The notes under the pieces were generated by a model that was given only the letters and a program-made list of their open reading frames with translations, was not told where the DNA came from and ran no database searches. Below, one piece after another: positions 4,200 to 21,108 of a stretch of DNA of 64,000 bases. The stretch's first letter is position 1, and the number at the start of each line of letters is the position of its first letter. The stretch spans positions 186,699 to 250,698 of the forward strand of contig CAJQIG010000002.1 of the NCBI GenBank assembly GCA_905478415.1, read 5' to 3'. This stretch comes from an uncultured Patescibacteria group bacterium (GTDB taxonomy: Bacteria; Patescibacteriota; Microgenomatia; UBA1400; PJMF01). The translations under genes and the position numbers were made by a program.

Positions 4200-4225
4200 G
4201 TGTACTACATAATTAAGACAAAAAA

Positions 4226-5211: not shown

Positions 5212-5606
5212 GATTCCTCCAAAAAAGCTAGAACGCCAGGTTTCTGGCGTTGATTAAAATCGTCAATAAAGCACCTTGGAATCGCATAGCTTCCAGTAGT
5301 GCATACACCAGTTGAGTAAGTGTCATCGGTGAAGATGACGTCGAACTTGACTTGGCAGATTTTTTGAATAGTATTTTTTCCATCTAGTTTGCAGTGCCAG
5401 TCAGATTGAAAGGCAATATGTTTTACTAGAAGGGAAGGATTCTCTTCAATCTTTTCTAAATTCTCATTCAAAAGCAGTTCTGCTTGCTGTTCAGTCAGCG
5501 GATGGACTTCGACCAGGGTATACGATAGTAATCCTTGAAAAAGCATCCCAGTACAAAAGAGAATCAGAGCCCACATATGGGGCTCATATTTTTTGAAACG
5601 AGCCAC
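5208..5606 (-). CDS. Membrane-anchored hypothetical protein
   Basis: 132 aa with an N-terminal TM helix, translationally coupled to the downstream ORF. Confidence 0.45.
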   Translation of the reverse strand: MARFKKYEPHMWALILFCTGMLFQGLLSYTLVEVHPLTEQQAELLLNENLEKIEENPSLLVKHIAFQSDWHCKLDGKNTIQKICQVKFDVIFTDDTYSTGVCTTGSYAIPRCFIDDFNQRQKPGVLAFLEES

Positions 5607-17255: not shown

Positions 17256-17546
17256 GTGGTTACACCAAATCATTTAGATGTCACAGAAGTTGTTAAAACA
17301 GAAGGTGGTTTTCTAGCAACAAAATCAGTGAAAACCGTTTCGATTACCAACAATCATCAAACTGAGTCAGTTTCAGTAAGGTATTGTCATCACAATGTGA
17401 TGTCGCATTACAGCTACGGAAGCATCCCTCAACAAATAATCTGGCTTACTCCAGGTTTTAGCGTTGATATAATTATGGATCACGACGGCTCCATCGAGAT
17501 ATTCGGAAGTGGGATGCCAGTCAAGTTGATAACTCACTCGACCTAA
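17256..17546 (+). CDS. Hypothetical small protein
   Basis: 96 aa ORF with an upstream -35/-10-like TTTACA-N16-TATAAT and RBS AAAGGAG. Confidence 0.35.
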   Translation: MVTPNHLDVTEVVKTEGGFLATKSVKTVSITNNHQTESVSVRYCHHNVMSHYSYGSIPQQIIWLTPGFSVDIIMDHDGSIEIFGSGMPVKLITHST

Positions 17547-17574
17547 TACCTTAGTTTTTATGTTTAATGTACAA

Positions 17575-17602
17575 AGCGCCATTTTTTATGGCGCTTTTTT
17601 TT
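17575..17602 (+). terminator. Rho-independent terminator
   Basis: AGCGCCAT-ttttt-ATGGCGCT followed by T8. Confidence 0.6.
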
Positions 17603-17742
17603 GAGGCAATAGACATGCAGGGTGTAGGGGAAACGCTAGGGTACTTTTGGTTACTATTTTATTGAATTGAGATTTAGTAAGCTATGTAGTACACTACATG
17701 TCTTGTACTTGGTACAATGAGAGTTGTAGTGCGTCTAGATTT

Positions 17743-17815
17743 GCCGAAGTGGCTCAGTGGTAGAGCACCATCTTGGTAAGATGGGGGTCACGGGTTCGAT
17801 TCCCGTCTTCGGCTC
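17743..17815 (+). tRNA. tRNA-Thr (anticodon GGT)
   Basis: Cloverleaf with acceptor GCCGAAG/CTTCGGC, anticodon loop TTGGTAA and T-loop GGTTCGATTCC. Confidence 0.9.
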
Positions 17816-17941
17816 AGAGTGGGTAGTTAACTTGAAAAGTTGCCGATTTGCTCAAGATCAAACTATGTCGAGGTGATATAATTTGTGAAGGTTTCTGGAT
17901 GAATAGTGCAGAGATTTTGTTTTTTAATGTCTTTGAAAGAT

Positions 17942-18023
17942 GCCAGGTTACTCAAGCGGTCAACGAGGACAGACTGTAAATCTGTTGGCTCAGCCTTCGT
18001 AGGTTCGAATCCTACACCTGGCA
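17942..18023 (+). tRNA. tRNA-Tyr (anticodon GTA), long variable arm
   Basis: Acceptor GCCAGGT/ACCTGGC, anticodon loop CTGTAAA, T-loop GGTTCGAATCC. Confidence 0.9.
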
Positions 18024-18041
18024 CAACTATAATAGTAAGGT

Positions 18042-18115
18042 GCCACCTTAGCTCAGTTGGTTAGAGCGACGGTTTTGTAAACCGTAGGTCCAGGGTTCGA
18101 ATCCCTGAGGTGGCT
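18042..18115 (+). tRNA. tRNA-Thr (anticodon TGT)
   Basis: Acceptor GCCACCT/AGGTGGC, anticodon loop TTTGTAA, T-loop GGTTCGAATCC. Confidence 0.9.
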
Positions 18116-18192
18116 CAAGCATTTTGACTGGCGTATTTACGCATGGTCATTCGTTTGATATAATACCCGTCTGAAAAGAAAAGAAAGTTAGT

Positions 18193-18393
18193 ATGGCAAG
18201 CAAGAAAAAAGGTCCACGACAACACGTCGGCTTGAAGTGTAAAGAATGTAACGCTTTTGGGTACGTGACCGCATTTAATAAAAATAATGAACAACTTAAG
18301 AAACAAGCAGGAGGTTCTACTTTCCCGCTGAACAAGTACTGCAAAAAGTGTCGCAAGCACACGGAGCATGTACAGTCTAAGAAACTTAAGTAA
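18193..18393 (+). CDS. rpmG: 50S ribosomal protein L33 (with internal insertion)
   Basis: C..C...Y.T..NK.N ... KYC..C.KHT.H zinc-ribbon pattern. An extended -10 TGATATAAT lies upstream. Confidence 0.75.
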   Translation: MASKKKGPRQHVGLKCKECNAFGYVTAFNKNNEQLKKQAGGSTFPLNKYCKKCRKHTEHVQSKKLK

Positions 18394-18418
18394 TCGTTTC
18401 ACCTACATAAAAATTGAG

Positions 18419-18445
18419 AACCGCACTGAAAAGTGCGGTTTTTTG
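18419..18445 (+). terminator. rpmG terminator
   Basis: AACCGCAC-tgaaaa-GTGCGGTT followed by TTTT. Confidence 0.6.
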
Positions 18446-18501
18446 TACTGAAAAATAGTAGTAACATCCCATATGATATAATAGGAGTCTTAAATGAGTA
18501 C

Positions 18502-18532
18502 CAGCACCGGCCTTCGCGCCGGTGCTTTTTTT
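18502..18532 (+). repeat. GC-rich REP-like hairpin/terminator, copy 1 (CAGCACCGGCCTTCGCGCCGGTGC + T7)
   Basis: An identical 31 bp sequence recurs at 19091-19121, and a shortened relative (TAGCACCGAAGGTGCTA) at 19189-19205. Confidence 0.6.
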
Positions 18533-18743
18533 GCTTATATATTGATCTTTTACACCTCATATGATATATTATGAGCTAGTTACATTGCTTTTTAAAATAA
18601 TAACTTTTGGCTACAACAGCGAATACATCATGCTTTTTACGAAGTCTGGGTGTGTTGACTGTTGTGGTCAAGAGTATTGTTACGATTGACTGCACAAAAA
18701 TTTTTTCAACTTTTTCCACCTAATAATCAAAAGGAGCAAGAAA

Positions 18744-19067
18744 ATGGAAAATGAAATGTTGCAGTTAGCTGGTGCTGAGGTTTCAGAACGTGTTGAGTTG
18801 GTAATTGCCGACCCCGAACATGATCGTCACCTGGATCTGTGTGGATTCCTACAAGTCGGACCAACATTGGTGGTCCGGATTCAGGAAGAAACCAGTATCT
18901 ACCAACTCCCCGATGAGTTGGAGTGGGATTGGGACGAGGTCGATTGCGGCCGCGAAACGGCTGGCCAGCTCATGGAGGCTGAGCAACTGCCCTATGAACT
19001 GACCAAGCACTTGGTCATTACAGCAGTCGCCACGAGCATTCTTGAAGCGTTTCTCAGCATGCGGTAG
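18744..19067 (+). CDS. Hypothetical acidic protein, GC-rich ORF bracketed by the duplicated hairpin
   Basis: 107 aa, about 55% GC against a 40-45% background, between two identical hairpins. Confidence 0.35.
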   Translation: MENEMLQLAGAEVSERVELVIADPEHDRHLDLCGFLQVGPTLVVRIQEETSIYQLPDELEWDWDEVDCGRETAGQLMEAEQLPYELTKHLVITAVATSILEAFLSMR

Positions 19068-19090
19068 AACCTTCAAGCAGCAATGTAGCA

Positions 19091-19121
19091 CAGCACCGGC
19101 CTTCGCGCCGGTGCTTTTTTT
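19091..19121 (+). repeat. GC-rich REP-like hairpin/terminator, copy 2
   Basis: Exact copy of 18502-18532. The upstream flank is also similar (aatg..ta.caCAGCACC). Confidence 0.6.
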
Positions 19122-19124
19122 CGT

Positions 19125-19735
19125 AGCGAGGAAACTCCGGACAGTTCATCCATTGGAGCGAAGCGATAGTGTCCGGGGATGAACGCCTCATAGCACCGAA
19201 GGTGCTATGATGTCATCATGAAAACCCGGAAGTTAAATCATAGTGTGTATAAACACCAATATCACTTGGTATGGGGGACGAAATATCGTCGGAAATTTTT
19301 CAAGAAGTATGTTGGAGATGAATTTGAACATCTTCTATACGAATTAGTTAAAAAGAAGTATCCAGATTTATATATCGAAGCGGTTAATACAGACCAGGAT
19401 CATGTACATATACAGATAGAAATACCACCAACATATGCAGTGTCAGACGTAGTAAAGCGAATAAAATGGCATAGTAGTGTGTACCTCAAGAAGAAGTTCA
19501 AATTTATCGATAGAATGTATATAAATGGAAACATTTGGGGTGTGGGATATTACTCATCAACCATAGGATTGGACGAAGAAACAATTAGAAAATACATAGA
19601 ATATCAGGGGAAAGAAGAAGTCCTCCAGACACCGAGTCTATTTGAATAAAATTTTCATGAGAACTTGACCTTTAGGTCATTGCGAAGCAAATAGGAAACC
19701 CCGGACATTGGCGTAGCTGTCCGGGGAGGACGTCA
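19125..19735 (+). mobile_element. IS200/IS605-family insertion sequence (tnpA only) with subterminal hairpins
   Basis: Left-end hairpin CCGGACA...TGTCCGG (19137-19176) and right-end hairpin CCCCGGACA-ttggcgtagc-TGTCCGGGG (19699-19726) flank the Y1 HUH transposase gene. Confidence 0.65.
19218..19649 (+). CDS. tnpA: IS200-like Y1 (HUH) transposase TnpA
   Basis: 143 aa, HUH motif HVHIQIEI, C-terminal catalytic Tyr region (RKYIEYQGKEE), typical IS200 size. Confidence 0.85.
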   Translation: MKTRKLNHSVYKHQYHLVWGTKYRRKFFKKYVGDEFEHLLYELVKKKYPDLYIEAVNTDQDHVHIQIEIPPTYAVSDVVKRIKWHSSVYLKKKFKFIDRMYINGNIWGVGYYSSTIGLDEETIRKYIEYQGKEEVLQTPSLFE

Positions 19736-19791
19736 TTTTACAAAAACCAAAAAACACAACTAGTTTTCTCAAGAAAAACCGCTTAGTGGTA

Positions 19792-21108
19792 TTATTTTAC
19801 CGATTTTACAACTTTTATGATATGTTGGGCGCCGTGTGTGAGTGACGTGGGGAGGGCGTGAGCGTTGAGCATAGCTTGTTCAATCCATGAATGTTGTTTA
19901 CCACGGGTTGAAAGTAAGCTTTCGAGCTGAGGCACAATTGAGTCCAAGACAATTCGACGACCAATTTGTTTTTGTTCGAATACTTCACGAATTCGTTCTT
20001 CCCACGGTCCCCATTCGTCCAGTGTCAGCAAAAAGCTGCCGGCAGCAGCTGCATCGTAGGCCATATCGCCGGAAGGTTTGGTGATAAAACCATCGGCCCA
20101 TGGGAAGCCGTAGGTTTGGAGTTTTTCATTCGCGTCTACAATCTGTGGATGGTAGAGAACCCGGAGTGGGGCATTTTTATCTGTTTCATCAAATACTTTG
20201 ACACGGTGTTTTTTTGCGAGTTCGAGTACACTTTTATAAATATCTTCGTGCGTGCCACAGTAGATGAGCAAACTGAGTTTTCGGGTTTTTCTTCTAAGCT
20301 CTGGCAGTAGTTGTTCGAGCGCAATCAGTAGTTCTGGCTTGTTGGTTCCAAGTCCGCCAGTAGTGAGGCAAAGTTTGAGAATTCCACTGCGGTGAGGATG
20401 TTTTGTTTCTTTGGCTTTGAGGGTGCGAGGGTCGATGGGGGCGCCAGTGACAAAAATTCTACTTGGTTCGGCCGCTATCCCAAGCAACGCTGCTTTTTCG
20501 AGAAACTCTGTTTTGGTATTTTCATCAAACACACAGAAGTACATATTTTTTCTATATGAGTTGGTGACGTACTCATCCCGAACATGAGGATCAGTAATGA
20601 CCTGGACGATAGTTTTACCTTGAGAAGCCAAAATATTTCCTGCCGCAATATGAAGTGACAGAATAGGATGTTTAATTCCGGCTGTGACGTATAAAAGTGG
20701 GGGAGTAATACTATCAAGAATCGGTAGCTTACTACGTCCAAACCTGTCAATAAAGGCTTTAATGGTCTGGAGAATACTGTACCGAGCAATAGTCTTGCCA
20801 ATTTCTTCGGTGAGCACAATTGATTTCCAATCTTTTTTGGAAACATAATTCGTTGGGTCAAGGACCCAAGCTTTGGTGTGATCAACTTTTTTGCCCCAAG
20901 CCGCCGTAGCGATTGCTAGAGCCATGGAGTAGTGAGCTCTAGAGAACACAATATCGGGGGTATCGTCCCGAGCGGGGAGGCCATGCATTTCTTTTAGATC
21001 CTCTTTGTAGCTGCTCGAAACGGTGATGATTGGGACTTCAGTTTTTTCGAGAAAGAGCTTATCTTCTTTGAGTGTTTTAATGAGGAAGGGGTCGAATAGT
21101 TCGGGCAT
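19792..21108 (-). CDS. Putative GT-B glycosyltransferase (MGDG-synthase/UgtP-like), low confidence
   Basis: 438 aa with a two-domain layout. Weak resemblance to GT28-type lipid glycosyltransferases. No stronger motif recognised. Confidence 0.3.
   Translation of the reverse strand: MPELFDPFLIKTLKEDKLFLEKTEVPIITVSSSYKEDLKEMHGLPARDDTPDIVFSRAHYSMALAIATAAWGKKVDHTKAWVLDPTNYVSKKDWKSIVLTEEIGKTIARYSILQTIKAFIDRFGRSKLPILDSITPPLLYVTAGIKHPILSLHIAAGNILASQGKTIVQVITDPHVRDEYVTNSYRKNMYFCVFDENTKTEFLEKAALLGIAAEPSRIFVTGAPIDPRTLKAKETKHPHRSGILKLCLTTGGLGTNKPELLIALEQLLPELRRKTRKLSLLIYCGTHEDIYKSVLELAKKHRVKVFDETDKNAPLRVLYHPQIVDANEKLQTYGFPWADGFITKPSGDMAYDAAAAGSFLLTLDEWGPWEERIREVFEQKQIGRRIVLDSIVPQLESLLSTRGKQHSWIEQAMLNAHALPTSLTHGAQHIIKVVKSVK

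Follow-up and report, generated by a model that had tools for sequence, protein, structure and literature searches.

What occupies the space between rpmG and the convergent gene that faces it, where GC-rich hairpins, an acidic open reading frame and a transposase gene lie side by side, and do these parts belong to one mobile system? The first-pass annotation saw the hairpins as REP-like palindromes served by the transposase, and the whole as an acquired segment. Analysis of the surrounding 64-kb stretch of DNA (‘the window’, 41.8% GC overall), from a marine, Pacebacteria-like member of the Patescibacteria, indicates that the interval between rpmG and the convergent 438-aa gene is made up of three layers of differing age. 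The account that we favour comprises an old module around the open reading frame (ORF107), a sister unit (P1–H1) upstream of it and a recent insertion of an IS200-group element, with the hairpins as terminators; we give this account as a whole a probability of about 0.8.

The ancestral condition is a simple junction. On one side the tRNA–rpmG unit is closed by an intrinsic terminator at 18419–18445 on the plus strand (AACCGCACT-GAAA-AGTGCGGTT plus a T-run), which has a counterpart at the same position 3′ of rpmG in the related locus L091 (GGCCGCAC-TTCG-TGCGGCC plus a T-run). On the other stands the ancestral neighbour of rpmG, the minus-strand 438-aa gene (19792–21108, function unassigned), which shows 93% amino-acid identity to its counterpart in L088 at a dS of 1.5. 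In L089, L090, L091 and one JGI contig, rpmG directly adjoins the convergent gene (438–447 aa) and a module of ~680 bp containing ORF107 is absent; the closest relatives by rpmG already lack it. Since the module is missing from more distant relatives, it represents a lineage-specific gain. The proposal that a segment was acquired just after the rpmG terminator therefore stands, in that ORF107 was added to this ancestral junction, with the qualification that the acquisition is old rather than recent, because an ortholog occupies the same place in a lineage separated by a dS of ~1.5–2.

A GC-rich hairpin followed by a T-run is the usual terminator design of the host genome. Five other examples were found in the window, each unique in sequence, and a search of the 16–22 kb region against Rfam gave only tRNAs above threshold. 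For genome scans this carries a caution: GC-rich hairpins in AT-rich genomes are usually plain terminators.

ORF107 (18744–19067, plus strand) is a real gene and an orphan. Its 107-aa product is acidic (pI 4.1; 23 D+E versus 6 K+R), as had been noted, although the GC content of ~55% first ascribed to the ORF is reached only in 200-nt windows (up to 55–56%) and the figure for the whole is 52%, with GC3 of 0.56 compared with 0.35–0.45 for neighbouring genes. Homology searches, suggested when the ORF was first picked out, yielded a single true ortholog (P0010, 62% identity, from an exhaustive HMMER search), and the comparison of the two shows purifying selection: dN/dS is 0.15, differences are distributed 33/21/53 over the three codon positions and indels are in frame. 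Two repetitive giant proteins of eukaryote type, also matched by HMMER, are regarded as artefacts of summed repeat scores. No match was obtained in Pfam, NCBIfam or PADLOC, a k-mer search recovered only the ORF itself, and Foldseek, given an AlphaFold2 model (pLDDT 77), matched nothing in PDB or BFVD.

Around this lineage-specific gene lie the elements of what would be a complete transcription unit, an old module consisting of a strong promoter, a structured leader, ORF107 and an intrinsic terminator. The promoter-like site, P2 (18542–18570, plus strand), has TTGATC, a 17-nt spacer and TG-n-TATATT, the extended −10 box TGATATATT within it starting at 18562. The leader contains a long, imperfect hairpin (18596–18682, plus strand; z −4.4, compared with −1.3 on the minus strand), stable on the plus strand alone, because many of its pairs are G-U, and without a match in Rfam. 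At the 3′ end, a 42-nt block (19080–19121, plus strand), consisting of GCAATGTAGCA and a hairpin with a T7 tail (H2, 19091–19121), would serve as the ORF107 terminator, the hairpin beginning 24 nt past the stop codon.

This hairpin is one of a pair. The 31-nt sequence CAGCACCGGCCTTCGCGCCGGTGCTTTTTTT is present at 18502–18532 (H1, plus strand) and again as H2, the two copies being direct repeats, 100% identical and 589 bp apart, exactly as first observed; the ‘similar upstream flanks’ that were also reported amount to a weak likeness: AATG and a further 5 nt precede each copy, with matches at 5 of 10 positions. The stem is perfect (9 bp, 7/9 pairs G-C), with a 6-nt loop, CUUCGC, and a T7 tail, and the predicted RNA fold is stable (−18 kcal/mol, z −3.6). 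From this structure we infer that both copies work as rho-independent terminators. H1 is preceded by a promoter-like box and, before that, by the rpmG terminator; no gene lies between, which leaves H1 with none to terminate.

The box in question, P1, is a perfect extended −10, TGATATAAT, at 18474–18482 on the plus strand, ~20 nt before H1. The 24 nt at 18464–18487 share 83% identity with P2, and the overlapping segment 18474–18497 shares 79% with the rpmG promoter region. Both extended −10 boxes had been recognised at the outset, each one base out of place (they begin at 18474 and 18562, not 18473 and 18561). The motif is enriched in the window, with seven copies compared with 1.1 expected, and is clustered, five of the seven falling in 17465–18570. 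A further TGATATAAT box at 17465, followed by a terminator at 17573, was considered as another such mini-unit and set aside; more simply, the stretch is the 3′ portion of an ORF of 96 aa followed by that ORF's own terminator. P1 and H1 would then form a truncated-looking sister unit, in which a box related to P2 is followed after ~20 nt by the identical terminator hairpin. The likeliest origin of such a unit is a local tandem duplication that spanned promoter to terminator, after which one copy lost the coding part or the other gained it.

The insertion sequence is a recent arrival. It occupies 618 bp (19122–19739, plus strand), carries tnpA only, lies 3′ of a T-run and ends in GACGTCATTTT. 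Its assignment as a tnpA-only element of IS200 type holds, with slightly wider bounds than the 19125–19735 first proposed. The gene (19218–19649, plus strand) encodes a Y1 HUH transposase of 143 aa, with the HUH motif at residues 62–64 and a Y126-x3-Q130 motif. TnpA covers the Pfam profile Y1_Tnp (PF01797) from position 1 to 121 of 121 (E 9e-31), reaches 111 bits with the NCBIfam equivalog transpos_IS200 (NF033573; cut-off 55 bits), and matches the IS608, ISDra2 and Sulfolobus TnpA proteins in PDB with E-values of 1e-12 to 1e-16. DHVHIQI (H62-V-H64) and KY126IEYQ130 align with DHIHIL and QYIENQ of IS608 TnpA (2a6m).

Both ends of the element bear the predicted CCGGACA/TGTCCGG subterminal palindromes, whereas terminal inverted repeats are absent. 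The left palindrome (19137–19176, plus strand; arms at 19137 and 19170) begins 15 nt from the left end and has a 26-nt loop and a weak fold (z −0.5); the right, CCCCGGACA-TTGGCGTAGC-TGTCCGGGG (19699–19726, plus strand; arms at 19701 and 19718), lies 13 nt from the right end and folds better (z −3.1). Each is preceded by AGGAAAC and shares the flank GGGGA with the other, so that the arrangement AGGAAAC[T/C]CCGGACA...TGTCCGGGGA[T/G]GA is repeated at the two ends. By inspection, the A-rich GGAAAC 5′ of both hairpin feet and the TTTT before both putative cleavage points are candidate guide and cleavage sequences, an arrangement compatible with the IS608 rule, under which only a guide-recognised tetranucleotide is needed (PMC3201880). 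The transposase would recognise the element's own subterminal hairpins and cleave after TTTT at both ends, with GGAAAC, by analogy with IS608, pairing with the T-rich cleavage and target sequence. A third hairpin, CATAGCACC-GAA-GGTGCTATG (19188–19210, plus strand; z −5.05), lies inside the element. It covers the Shine–Dalgarno-like AAGGTG, its extended stem reaching up to the tnpA start codon, and probably limits translation of tnpA, as the corresponding structure does in Salmonella IS200. The short hairpin seen before tnpA at the outset, TAGCACCGAAGGTGCTA at 19190–19206, does exist, but it belongs to this internal structure, present in both copies of the element, and not to the host hairpins.

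A second copy of the insertion sequence (L012), 100% identical over its 618 bp, stands ~107 kb away on the same 394-kb scaffold in a different context, and it is this identical copy that defines both ends. Each copy is directly 3′ of a T-run, is preceded by GC-T(5–7) and ends in CATTTT, and no target-site duplication is present at the flanks of either. The insertion site is polymorphic, as had been suspected: a relative with ~80% DNA identity has this locus without the element, and L086 and L088 are empty sites, in which the T8 of the hairpin runs straight into the homologue of window position 19740 onward. Two variant contigs, L087 and L092, come from the same population, the latter ending 570 bp short of H1. 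ORF107 was considered as cargo of the element and rejected: the sequence common to both copies begins only at the T-run, and the 104-aa membrane-protein ORF before the second copy is unrelated. The plus strand has a GC skew of +0.108, positive in 30/32 2-kb bins, which places the top strand of the element on the lagging-strand template, the orientation reported for the IS200/IS605 family (PMC6006769, PMC5027513). The putative cleavage at TTTT, together with the proposed guide pairing, leads us to suggest that the element inserts 3′ of T-runs in the single-stranded lagging-strand template. In this case the tail of seven T behind H2 may have offered a harmless target, one at which the ORF107 terminator would stay intact and tnpA would be shielded from read-through.

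Could the hairpins and the transposase nonetheless be parts of one system? The original REP-like reading held that H1, H2 and the IS-internal hairpin belong to one family of GC-rich palindromes, which the Y1 transposase would mobilise or recognise, as in REP/RAYT systems. GC-rich hairpins adjoining such an enzyme in a 42% GC genome would suit it, as would the GTAG 3 nt upstream of the foot of the H2 stem and the arm AGCACCG/GGTGCT that the internal hairpin has in common with H1 and H2. The copy number argues otherwise, since at ≤3 mismatches the 64 kb contain two copies, compared with ~8 at a REP density like that of E. coli. Those two matches to the 22-nt hairpin core compare with none in 100 shuffles; no copy was found in 36 kb of related loci, and a scan of JGI metagenomes for the exact core found it, in the host organism, at this locus here only. 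A free-loop scan of genomes returned 62 single matches over unrelated phyla, the host not being among the GTDB representatives matched, and viral scans for H sites found nothing. The search for copies covered the 64 kb, ~10% of a genome of ~0.66 Mb, and a few further loci, and up to ~30 more copies would be statistically compatible with its outcome. Moreover, the copies are direct, not inverted pairs; their stem is perfect, whereas REP recognition requires a stem mismatch (PMC3333891); and H1, at its weakly matching flank (5/10 positions), has GTAC at a shifted position rather than GT[AG]G. TnpA fits IS200 models over their full length and has different end hairpins of its own, the second of the two transposase copies has no such hairpin nearby, and relatives have H2 without any transposase. 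As far as the data reach, the hairpin is a duplicated terminator occurring twice at this one locus, with no REP-associated transposase, and the REP-like reading is very improbable indeed. A looser connection, in which the element targets terminator hairpins as structures and its position at H2 was directed, not incidental, would account for the window copy lying exactly at the end of a strong hairpin's T7 tail, where the hairpin could expose or mark a single-stranded target. This we consider quite unlikely: the second copy follows GCAGCTTTTT in the 3′ end of a membrane-protein ORF, without a hairpin, and the IS608 paradigm calls for nothing beyond the tetranucleotide. Only two insertions are available to judge by, and with 1173 TTTT sites on the plus strand two are too few to show whether the hairpin itself has a part in targeting. 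ORF107 might instead be a mobile gene cassette, the P2–leader–ORF107 unit having entered a P1–H unit by site-specific insertion, with H1 and H2 as att-like sites and the invariance of the 42-nt block reflecting a recombination-site role. Identical 31-nt direct repeats do flank exactly one promoter–gene unit, the module is lineage-specific and its ORF is richer in GC than the neighbouring genes, and the block has stayed invariant while ORF107 diverged to 62% amino-acid identity. Yet no recombinase adjoins, and the genome, JGI and viral scans turned up neither a further cassette nor a further H site. ORF107 and its ortholog are in the same place with a dS of ~2, compared with 1.5 for the 438-aa gene, which fits vertical descent, and since P1 and P2 are duplicated too (83% identical), tandem duplication of the whole unit is a better explanation than cassette insertion, which we regard as decidedly improbable. 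By inspection, the hairpin is also far shorter than an integron attC site, and no adjoining integrase was noted.

The 42-nt block deserves separate consideration, because it may be more than a terminator: it could be an RNA module whose function depends on its sequence, such as a tiny-RNA scaffold. The ~44-nt transcript from P1 to H1 and the 3′ end of the ORF107 mRNA would then have a bound protein or a target in common. In a relative ~80% identical in DNA, 42/42 nt of the block are unchanged, between lineages in which synonymous sites are saturated (pS 0.65–0.70) and identity falls to ~50% over the 27 nt past the H2 T-run; conservation extends beyond the stem to the loop and the preceding 11 nt. 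A plain terminator has no obvious need for 42 invariant nt that include these parts. P1 itself, a perfect box ~20 nt before H1 inside the cluster of boxes, is also suggestive, and the conserved segment before H2 can pair over 11 bp with the ORF107 mRNA at its predicted 5′ end (−15.8 kcal/mol). Against this, just two lineages can be compared, and stem and T-run (25/42 nt) would be constrained in any terminator, so that the real excess is ~17 nt. The 5′/3′ pairing is real but statistically not distinctive, another transcript site reaching −15.9 kcal/mol and 0.4% of window positions scoring as well, and it was dropped as a distinguishing feature. No local target stands out for the tail of the P1–H1 RNA, and the block matches no Rfam family. 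We hold both the module and its shared partner to be unlikely, if conceivable; somewhat less likely again is the fuller form, a CPR small-RNA module made up of the block and a promoter-driven P1–H1, in which the ~44-nt RNA and the ORF107 3′ end would share a hairpin scaffold that binds a protein or is regulatory. If true, it could couple expression of a fast-evolving acidic orphan to the neighbouring, highly expressed tRNA/rpmG locus. Any of these RNA functions would be compatible with our account of the insertion sequence, and the combination of a duplicated, invariant terminator block with a lineage-specific acidic orphan gene is worth checking in metatranscriptomes.

Among known systems, H1 and H2 resemble intrinsic terminators, including the duplicated or tandem ones that follow highly expressed operons for tRNAs and ribosomal proteins; they share with these a 9-bp GC-rich stem, UUCG in the loop and a tail of 7–8 T, a design present at other genes in the window too, and, in H2, a position shortly 3′ of a gene. 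They differ from intrinsic and tandem terminators in the sequence identity of the two copies, in that H1 follows a promoter-like box and not a gene, and that loop and 11 upstream nt are invariant across deeply diverged lineages. With REP, BIME and REPIN sequences and their RAYT enzymes (the E. coli REPtron) they have in common that GC-rich extragenic palindromes of 20–40 nt lie near a Y1-family enzyme; here, however, there are two copies rather than hundreds, a T-run tail follows in the manner of a terminator, and the enzyme is of the IS200 class and is predicted to bind other hairpins.

The insertion sequence resembles members of the IS200 group (Salmonella IS200, Yersinia IS1541 and, as paradigm, IS608 of H. 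pylori) in having a single tnpA for a Y1 HUH protein of ~140 aa with Y-x3-Q, subterminal hairpins at both ends without terminal inverted repeats, insertion 3′ of a short specific sequence without target duplication, a lagging-strand-template orientation, and a hairpin over the ribosome-binding region upstream of tnpA. Among annotated plasmid-borne TnpA proteins the nearest, a member of the IS1541A family, has only ~41% identity to it, and there was no match at the DNA level. It differs from the group in being very short, in the 26-nt loop of its left hairpin, in an apparent cleavage and target sequence of TTTT where IS608 uses TTAC/TCAA, and in its host, a Patescibacteria (CPR) bacterium. To our knowledge, few descriptions exist of mobile elements in CPR genomes, and the locus should thus be useful for annotating them: it offers a minimal IS200-type element in an ultra-small genome for which the two ends, the T-run target and the expected orientation to replication are documented, along with an empty site in a relative. 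Its mechanism is as expected for the known type. The insertion sequence adds one more ordinary member to an established family, and next to it lies a small, unusually well conserved element.

The IS200-group element of the window is inserted in the terminator T-tail of an old, lineage-specific orphan gene, ORF107. The features described in the first-pass annotation were all found in the sequence. Its tnpA (19218–19649, + strand) is a full-length Y1 transposase ORF, and the assignment to the IS200 type held up, the product matching both Pfam PF01797 (E 9e-31) and the NCBIfam IS200 equivalog (111 bits; cut-off 55 bits). Alignment with the IS608 TnpA structure placed both the HUH (H62-V-H64) and Y126-x3-Q130 motifs. 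A second copy (locus L012) lies ~107 kb away on the same scaffold, and the sequence shared by the two loci is exactly window 19117–19739, at 100% identity, running from five T's through CGTAGCGAGG... to ...GACGTCATTTT. Because the IS608 convention excludes the target from the element (PMC3201880), the T-run was assigned to the target, giving an IS of 618 bp (19122–19739). TTTT precedes both cleavage points. Each end is built as AGGAAAC[T/C]-CCGGACA-loop-TGTCCGG-GGA[T/G]GA, its hairpin set in by 15 nt on the left and by 13 nt on the right; by analogy, the A-rich stretch preceding each hairpin foot on the 5′ side is plausibly a guide in the IS608 sense.

The first-pass annotation had proposed checking insertion-site polymorphism, and IS-free sites were indeed present in L086 and L088, contigs of a lineage with ~80% DNA identity: there the ORF107 ortholog is followed by an identical hairpin, a T8 run and, directly, the sequence that in the window borders the IS on its right. 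The IS came into the window's lineage later. In three relatives at a greater distance (L089/L090; L091, GCA_002790935.1; and a JGI contig), the convergent 438–447-aa gene directly faces rpmG with its terminator, and ORF107 and the IS are both missing from this junction. The ~680-bp segment comprising P1, H1, P2, leader, ORF107 and H2 (P1 and P2 being promoter-like extended −10 boxes, H1 and H2 identical hairpins with T-runs) is therefore a lineage-specific gain, and the gain is old.

ORF107 (18744–19067, + strand) encodes an acidic product (pI 4.1) and has 52% GC, against 41.8% for the window. Many marine metagenome contigs, a 394-kb ENA scaffold and a 658-kb NCBI contig among them, carry it together with tnpA and the neighbouring genes at 100% identity in DNA; among named organisms, the window's L33 protein is closest to those of Candidatus Pacebacteria / Patescibacteria MAGs. 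Exhaustive protein searching recovered one true homolog, P0010 (106 aa, 62% identity), whose 502-bp contig (L086) represents, with the independent L088 from another sample, the orthologous locus of the ~80% lineage. Between the orthologs dN/dS is 0.15 with pS 0.70, the three codon positions differ 33/21/53 times and indels are solely in-frame; for the flanking 438-aa gene, protein identity is 93% and dS 1.5. These substitution patterns mark ORF107 as a genuine, fast-evolving gene. The proposal that the segment was horizontally acquired stands in part: it is a lineage-specific, albeit old, gain, and a GC3 of 0.56 and orphan status suggest foreign origin without proving it, since AT-rich DNA (32% GC) makes up promoter and leader and GC3 is undecayed in both lineages.

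The leader (18577–18700, + strand) contains a ~40-bp imperfect hairpin with many G-U pairs (arms ~18596–18627 and ~18651–18682), stable on the + strand alone (z −4.4, vs −1.3 on the − strand) and matching no Rfam family. The predicted 5′ end of the mRNA (18579–18589) can pair with the conserved segment immediately before H2 (19079–19089) over 11 contiguous pairs, one G-U (−15.8 kcal/mol); an equally good site elsewhere in the ORF107 transcript makes this statistically undistinctive.

The 31-mer CAGCACCGGCCTTCGCGCCGGTGCTTTTTTT occurs on the + strand as identical copies 589 bp apart, H1 at 18502–18532 and H2 at 19091–19121. The first-pass annotation took these for REP-like elements tied to the Y1 transposase, a reading not supported by copy number, generic shape, missing hallmarks and terminator design. 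With ≤3 mismatches allowed, the 22-nt core matched only these two places in the 64-kb window (none in 100 shuffles), and the hairpin was absent from 36 kb of other loci in this organism and its relatives, a count that covers ~1/10 of the genome and with which a low-copy family (< ~30 copies) is compatible. Within this organism, JGI metagenome contigs showed the exact core at this locus alone, the five other matches in that collection being unrelated contigs. With the loop left free, a genome-collection scan gave 62 single matches scattered across unrelated phyla; such a pattern is typical of a generic terminator shape that arises repeatedly. Other unique GC-rich hairpins with T-runs lie at 4224, 17573, 18419, 22192, 47548 and 58170, and this is the normal gene-termination design of the genome. 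Compared with REP elements, on hallmarks taken from PMC3333891 and PMC6006769, the stem here is perfect, the copies are direct repeats, not inverted ones, GT[AG]G occurs near H2 only and not at the foot, and the transposase belongs to the IS200 class and has ends of its own. The unrelated JGI contigs (L080/L083, L082, L084/L085; GC 49–67%) carry the exact core GCACCGGCCTTCGCGCCGGTGC in entirely different flanks, some with no T-run after it, an apparent case of convergence on a stable hairpin of the UUCG type.

Conservation around the H2 terminator extends further: 42 nt (19080–19121) are identical in the diverged lineage, against ~70% for the upstream ORF and about half for the 27 nt past the T-run. 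Any terminator would constrain stem and T-run (25 nt), which leaves the 6-nt loop and 11 nt upstream as the excess. H1 matches H2 exactly and follows no gene; it lies ~20 nt past a perfect extended −10 box, P1, which shares 83% identity with P2 over 24 nt and 79% with the promoter region of rpmG. Most simply, a unit running from promoter to terminator would have been duplicated in tandem, only one of the copies having the coding part; a tiny P1-H1 RNA is possible, as is additional insulation by H1 downstream of the tRNA/rpmG unit, which is strongly expressed. This duplicated, invariant block is a minor unexplained feature, of interest for transcript data. The two extended −10 boxes noticed earlier were located at 18474 and 18562. 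Of seven strong TGATATAWT boxes in the window (1.1 expected), five fall within 1.1 kb (17465–18570), on the + strand only, preceding tRNA, rpmG, H1 and ORF107. A 26-aa small ORF, MSTSTGLRAGAFFAYILIFYTSYDIL (18483–18575, + strand; well-spaced AGGAG, ATG at 18494), passes straight through the H1 hairpin and T-run; its translation is doubtful because AGGAG may precede the P1 transcription start.

Among the neighbours, TTTTCTCAAGAAAAACCGCTTAG (19763–19785), just past the 438-aa gene stop and containing the near-palindrome TTTTCT-CA-AGAAAA, is identical in the ~80% relative (L086 445–467; L088) and partly kept as TTTTTCTCAAGAAAAC in a distant Pacebacteria genome (L091 ~5300–5315). The L33 gene rpmG (18193–18393, + strand; Pfam E 5e-8) has no public gene call on record for this organism, and public calls list a 69-aa ORF (17373–17582) opposite and overlapping a 96-aa + strand ORF (17256–17546) with its own terminator (17573–17605); both are probable annotation errors.

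At L012 the IS follows GCAGCTTTTT, close to the 3′ end of an ORF for a 104-aa membrane protein that bears no relation to ORF107; hence ORF107 is not IS cargo, and a hairpin is unnecessary at the target. There (L012 2595–2909 and 3541–3756) the IS lies 4 nt before the present stop of the 104-aa ORF, which would extend ~9 codons further if the IS were absent; only its extreme C-terminus is swapped, and the downstream 71-aa ORF is unharmed. Four independent assemblies (L006, L007, L009, L010), compared with L001/L008 and L012/L013/L016/L017, join the ORF107 left flank to the right flank of the L012 copy (ORF71/VanW side), and the reciprocal ORF104-IS-438aa junction was never observed. This pattern would be expected if part of the population carried an IS-mediated tandem duplication of the ~107-kb interval, and also from assembler chimeras across the 618-bp repeat.

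The short hairpin reported before tnpA, TAGCACCGAAGGTGCTA, is present, although it sits inside the IS. It has a 10-bp stem (z −5), the SD-like AAGGTG falls in its loop and 3′ arm, and a stem extension reaches the ATG; it resembles the translational-repression stem-loop of Salmonella IS200. Its arm AGCACCG/GGTGCT (19192–19206) is common to the host hairpins (18503–18526, 19092–19115), CATAGCACCG and CACAGCACCG matching, with flank, at 9/10 positions; three of only four AGCACCG occurrences on the window's + strand lie at these hairpins, which may reflect chance or a common host factor.

A DNA-level search with the IS gave no match, and TnpA is ~41% identical to its closest annotated plasmid-borne counterpart, an IS1541A-family member; the element is a new but ordinary IS200-group member. 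The + strand is G-rich in 30/32 bins of the window and the IS top strand therefore lies on the lagging-strand template, the same placement as described for its family (PMC6006769, PMC5027513).
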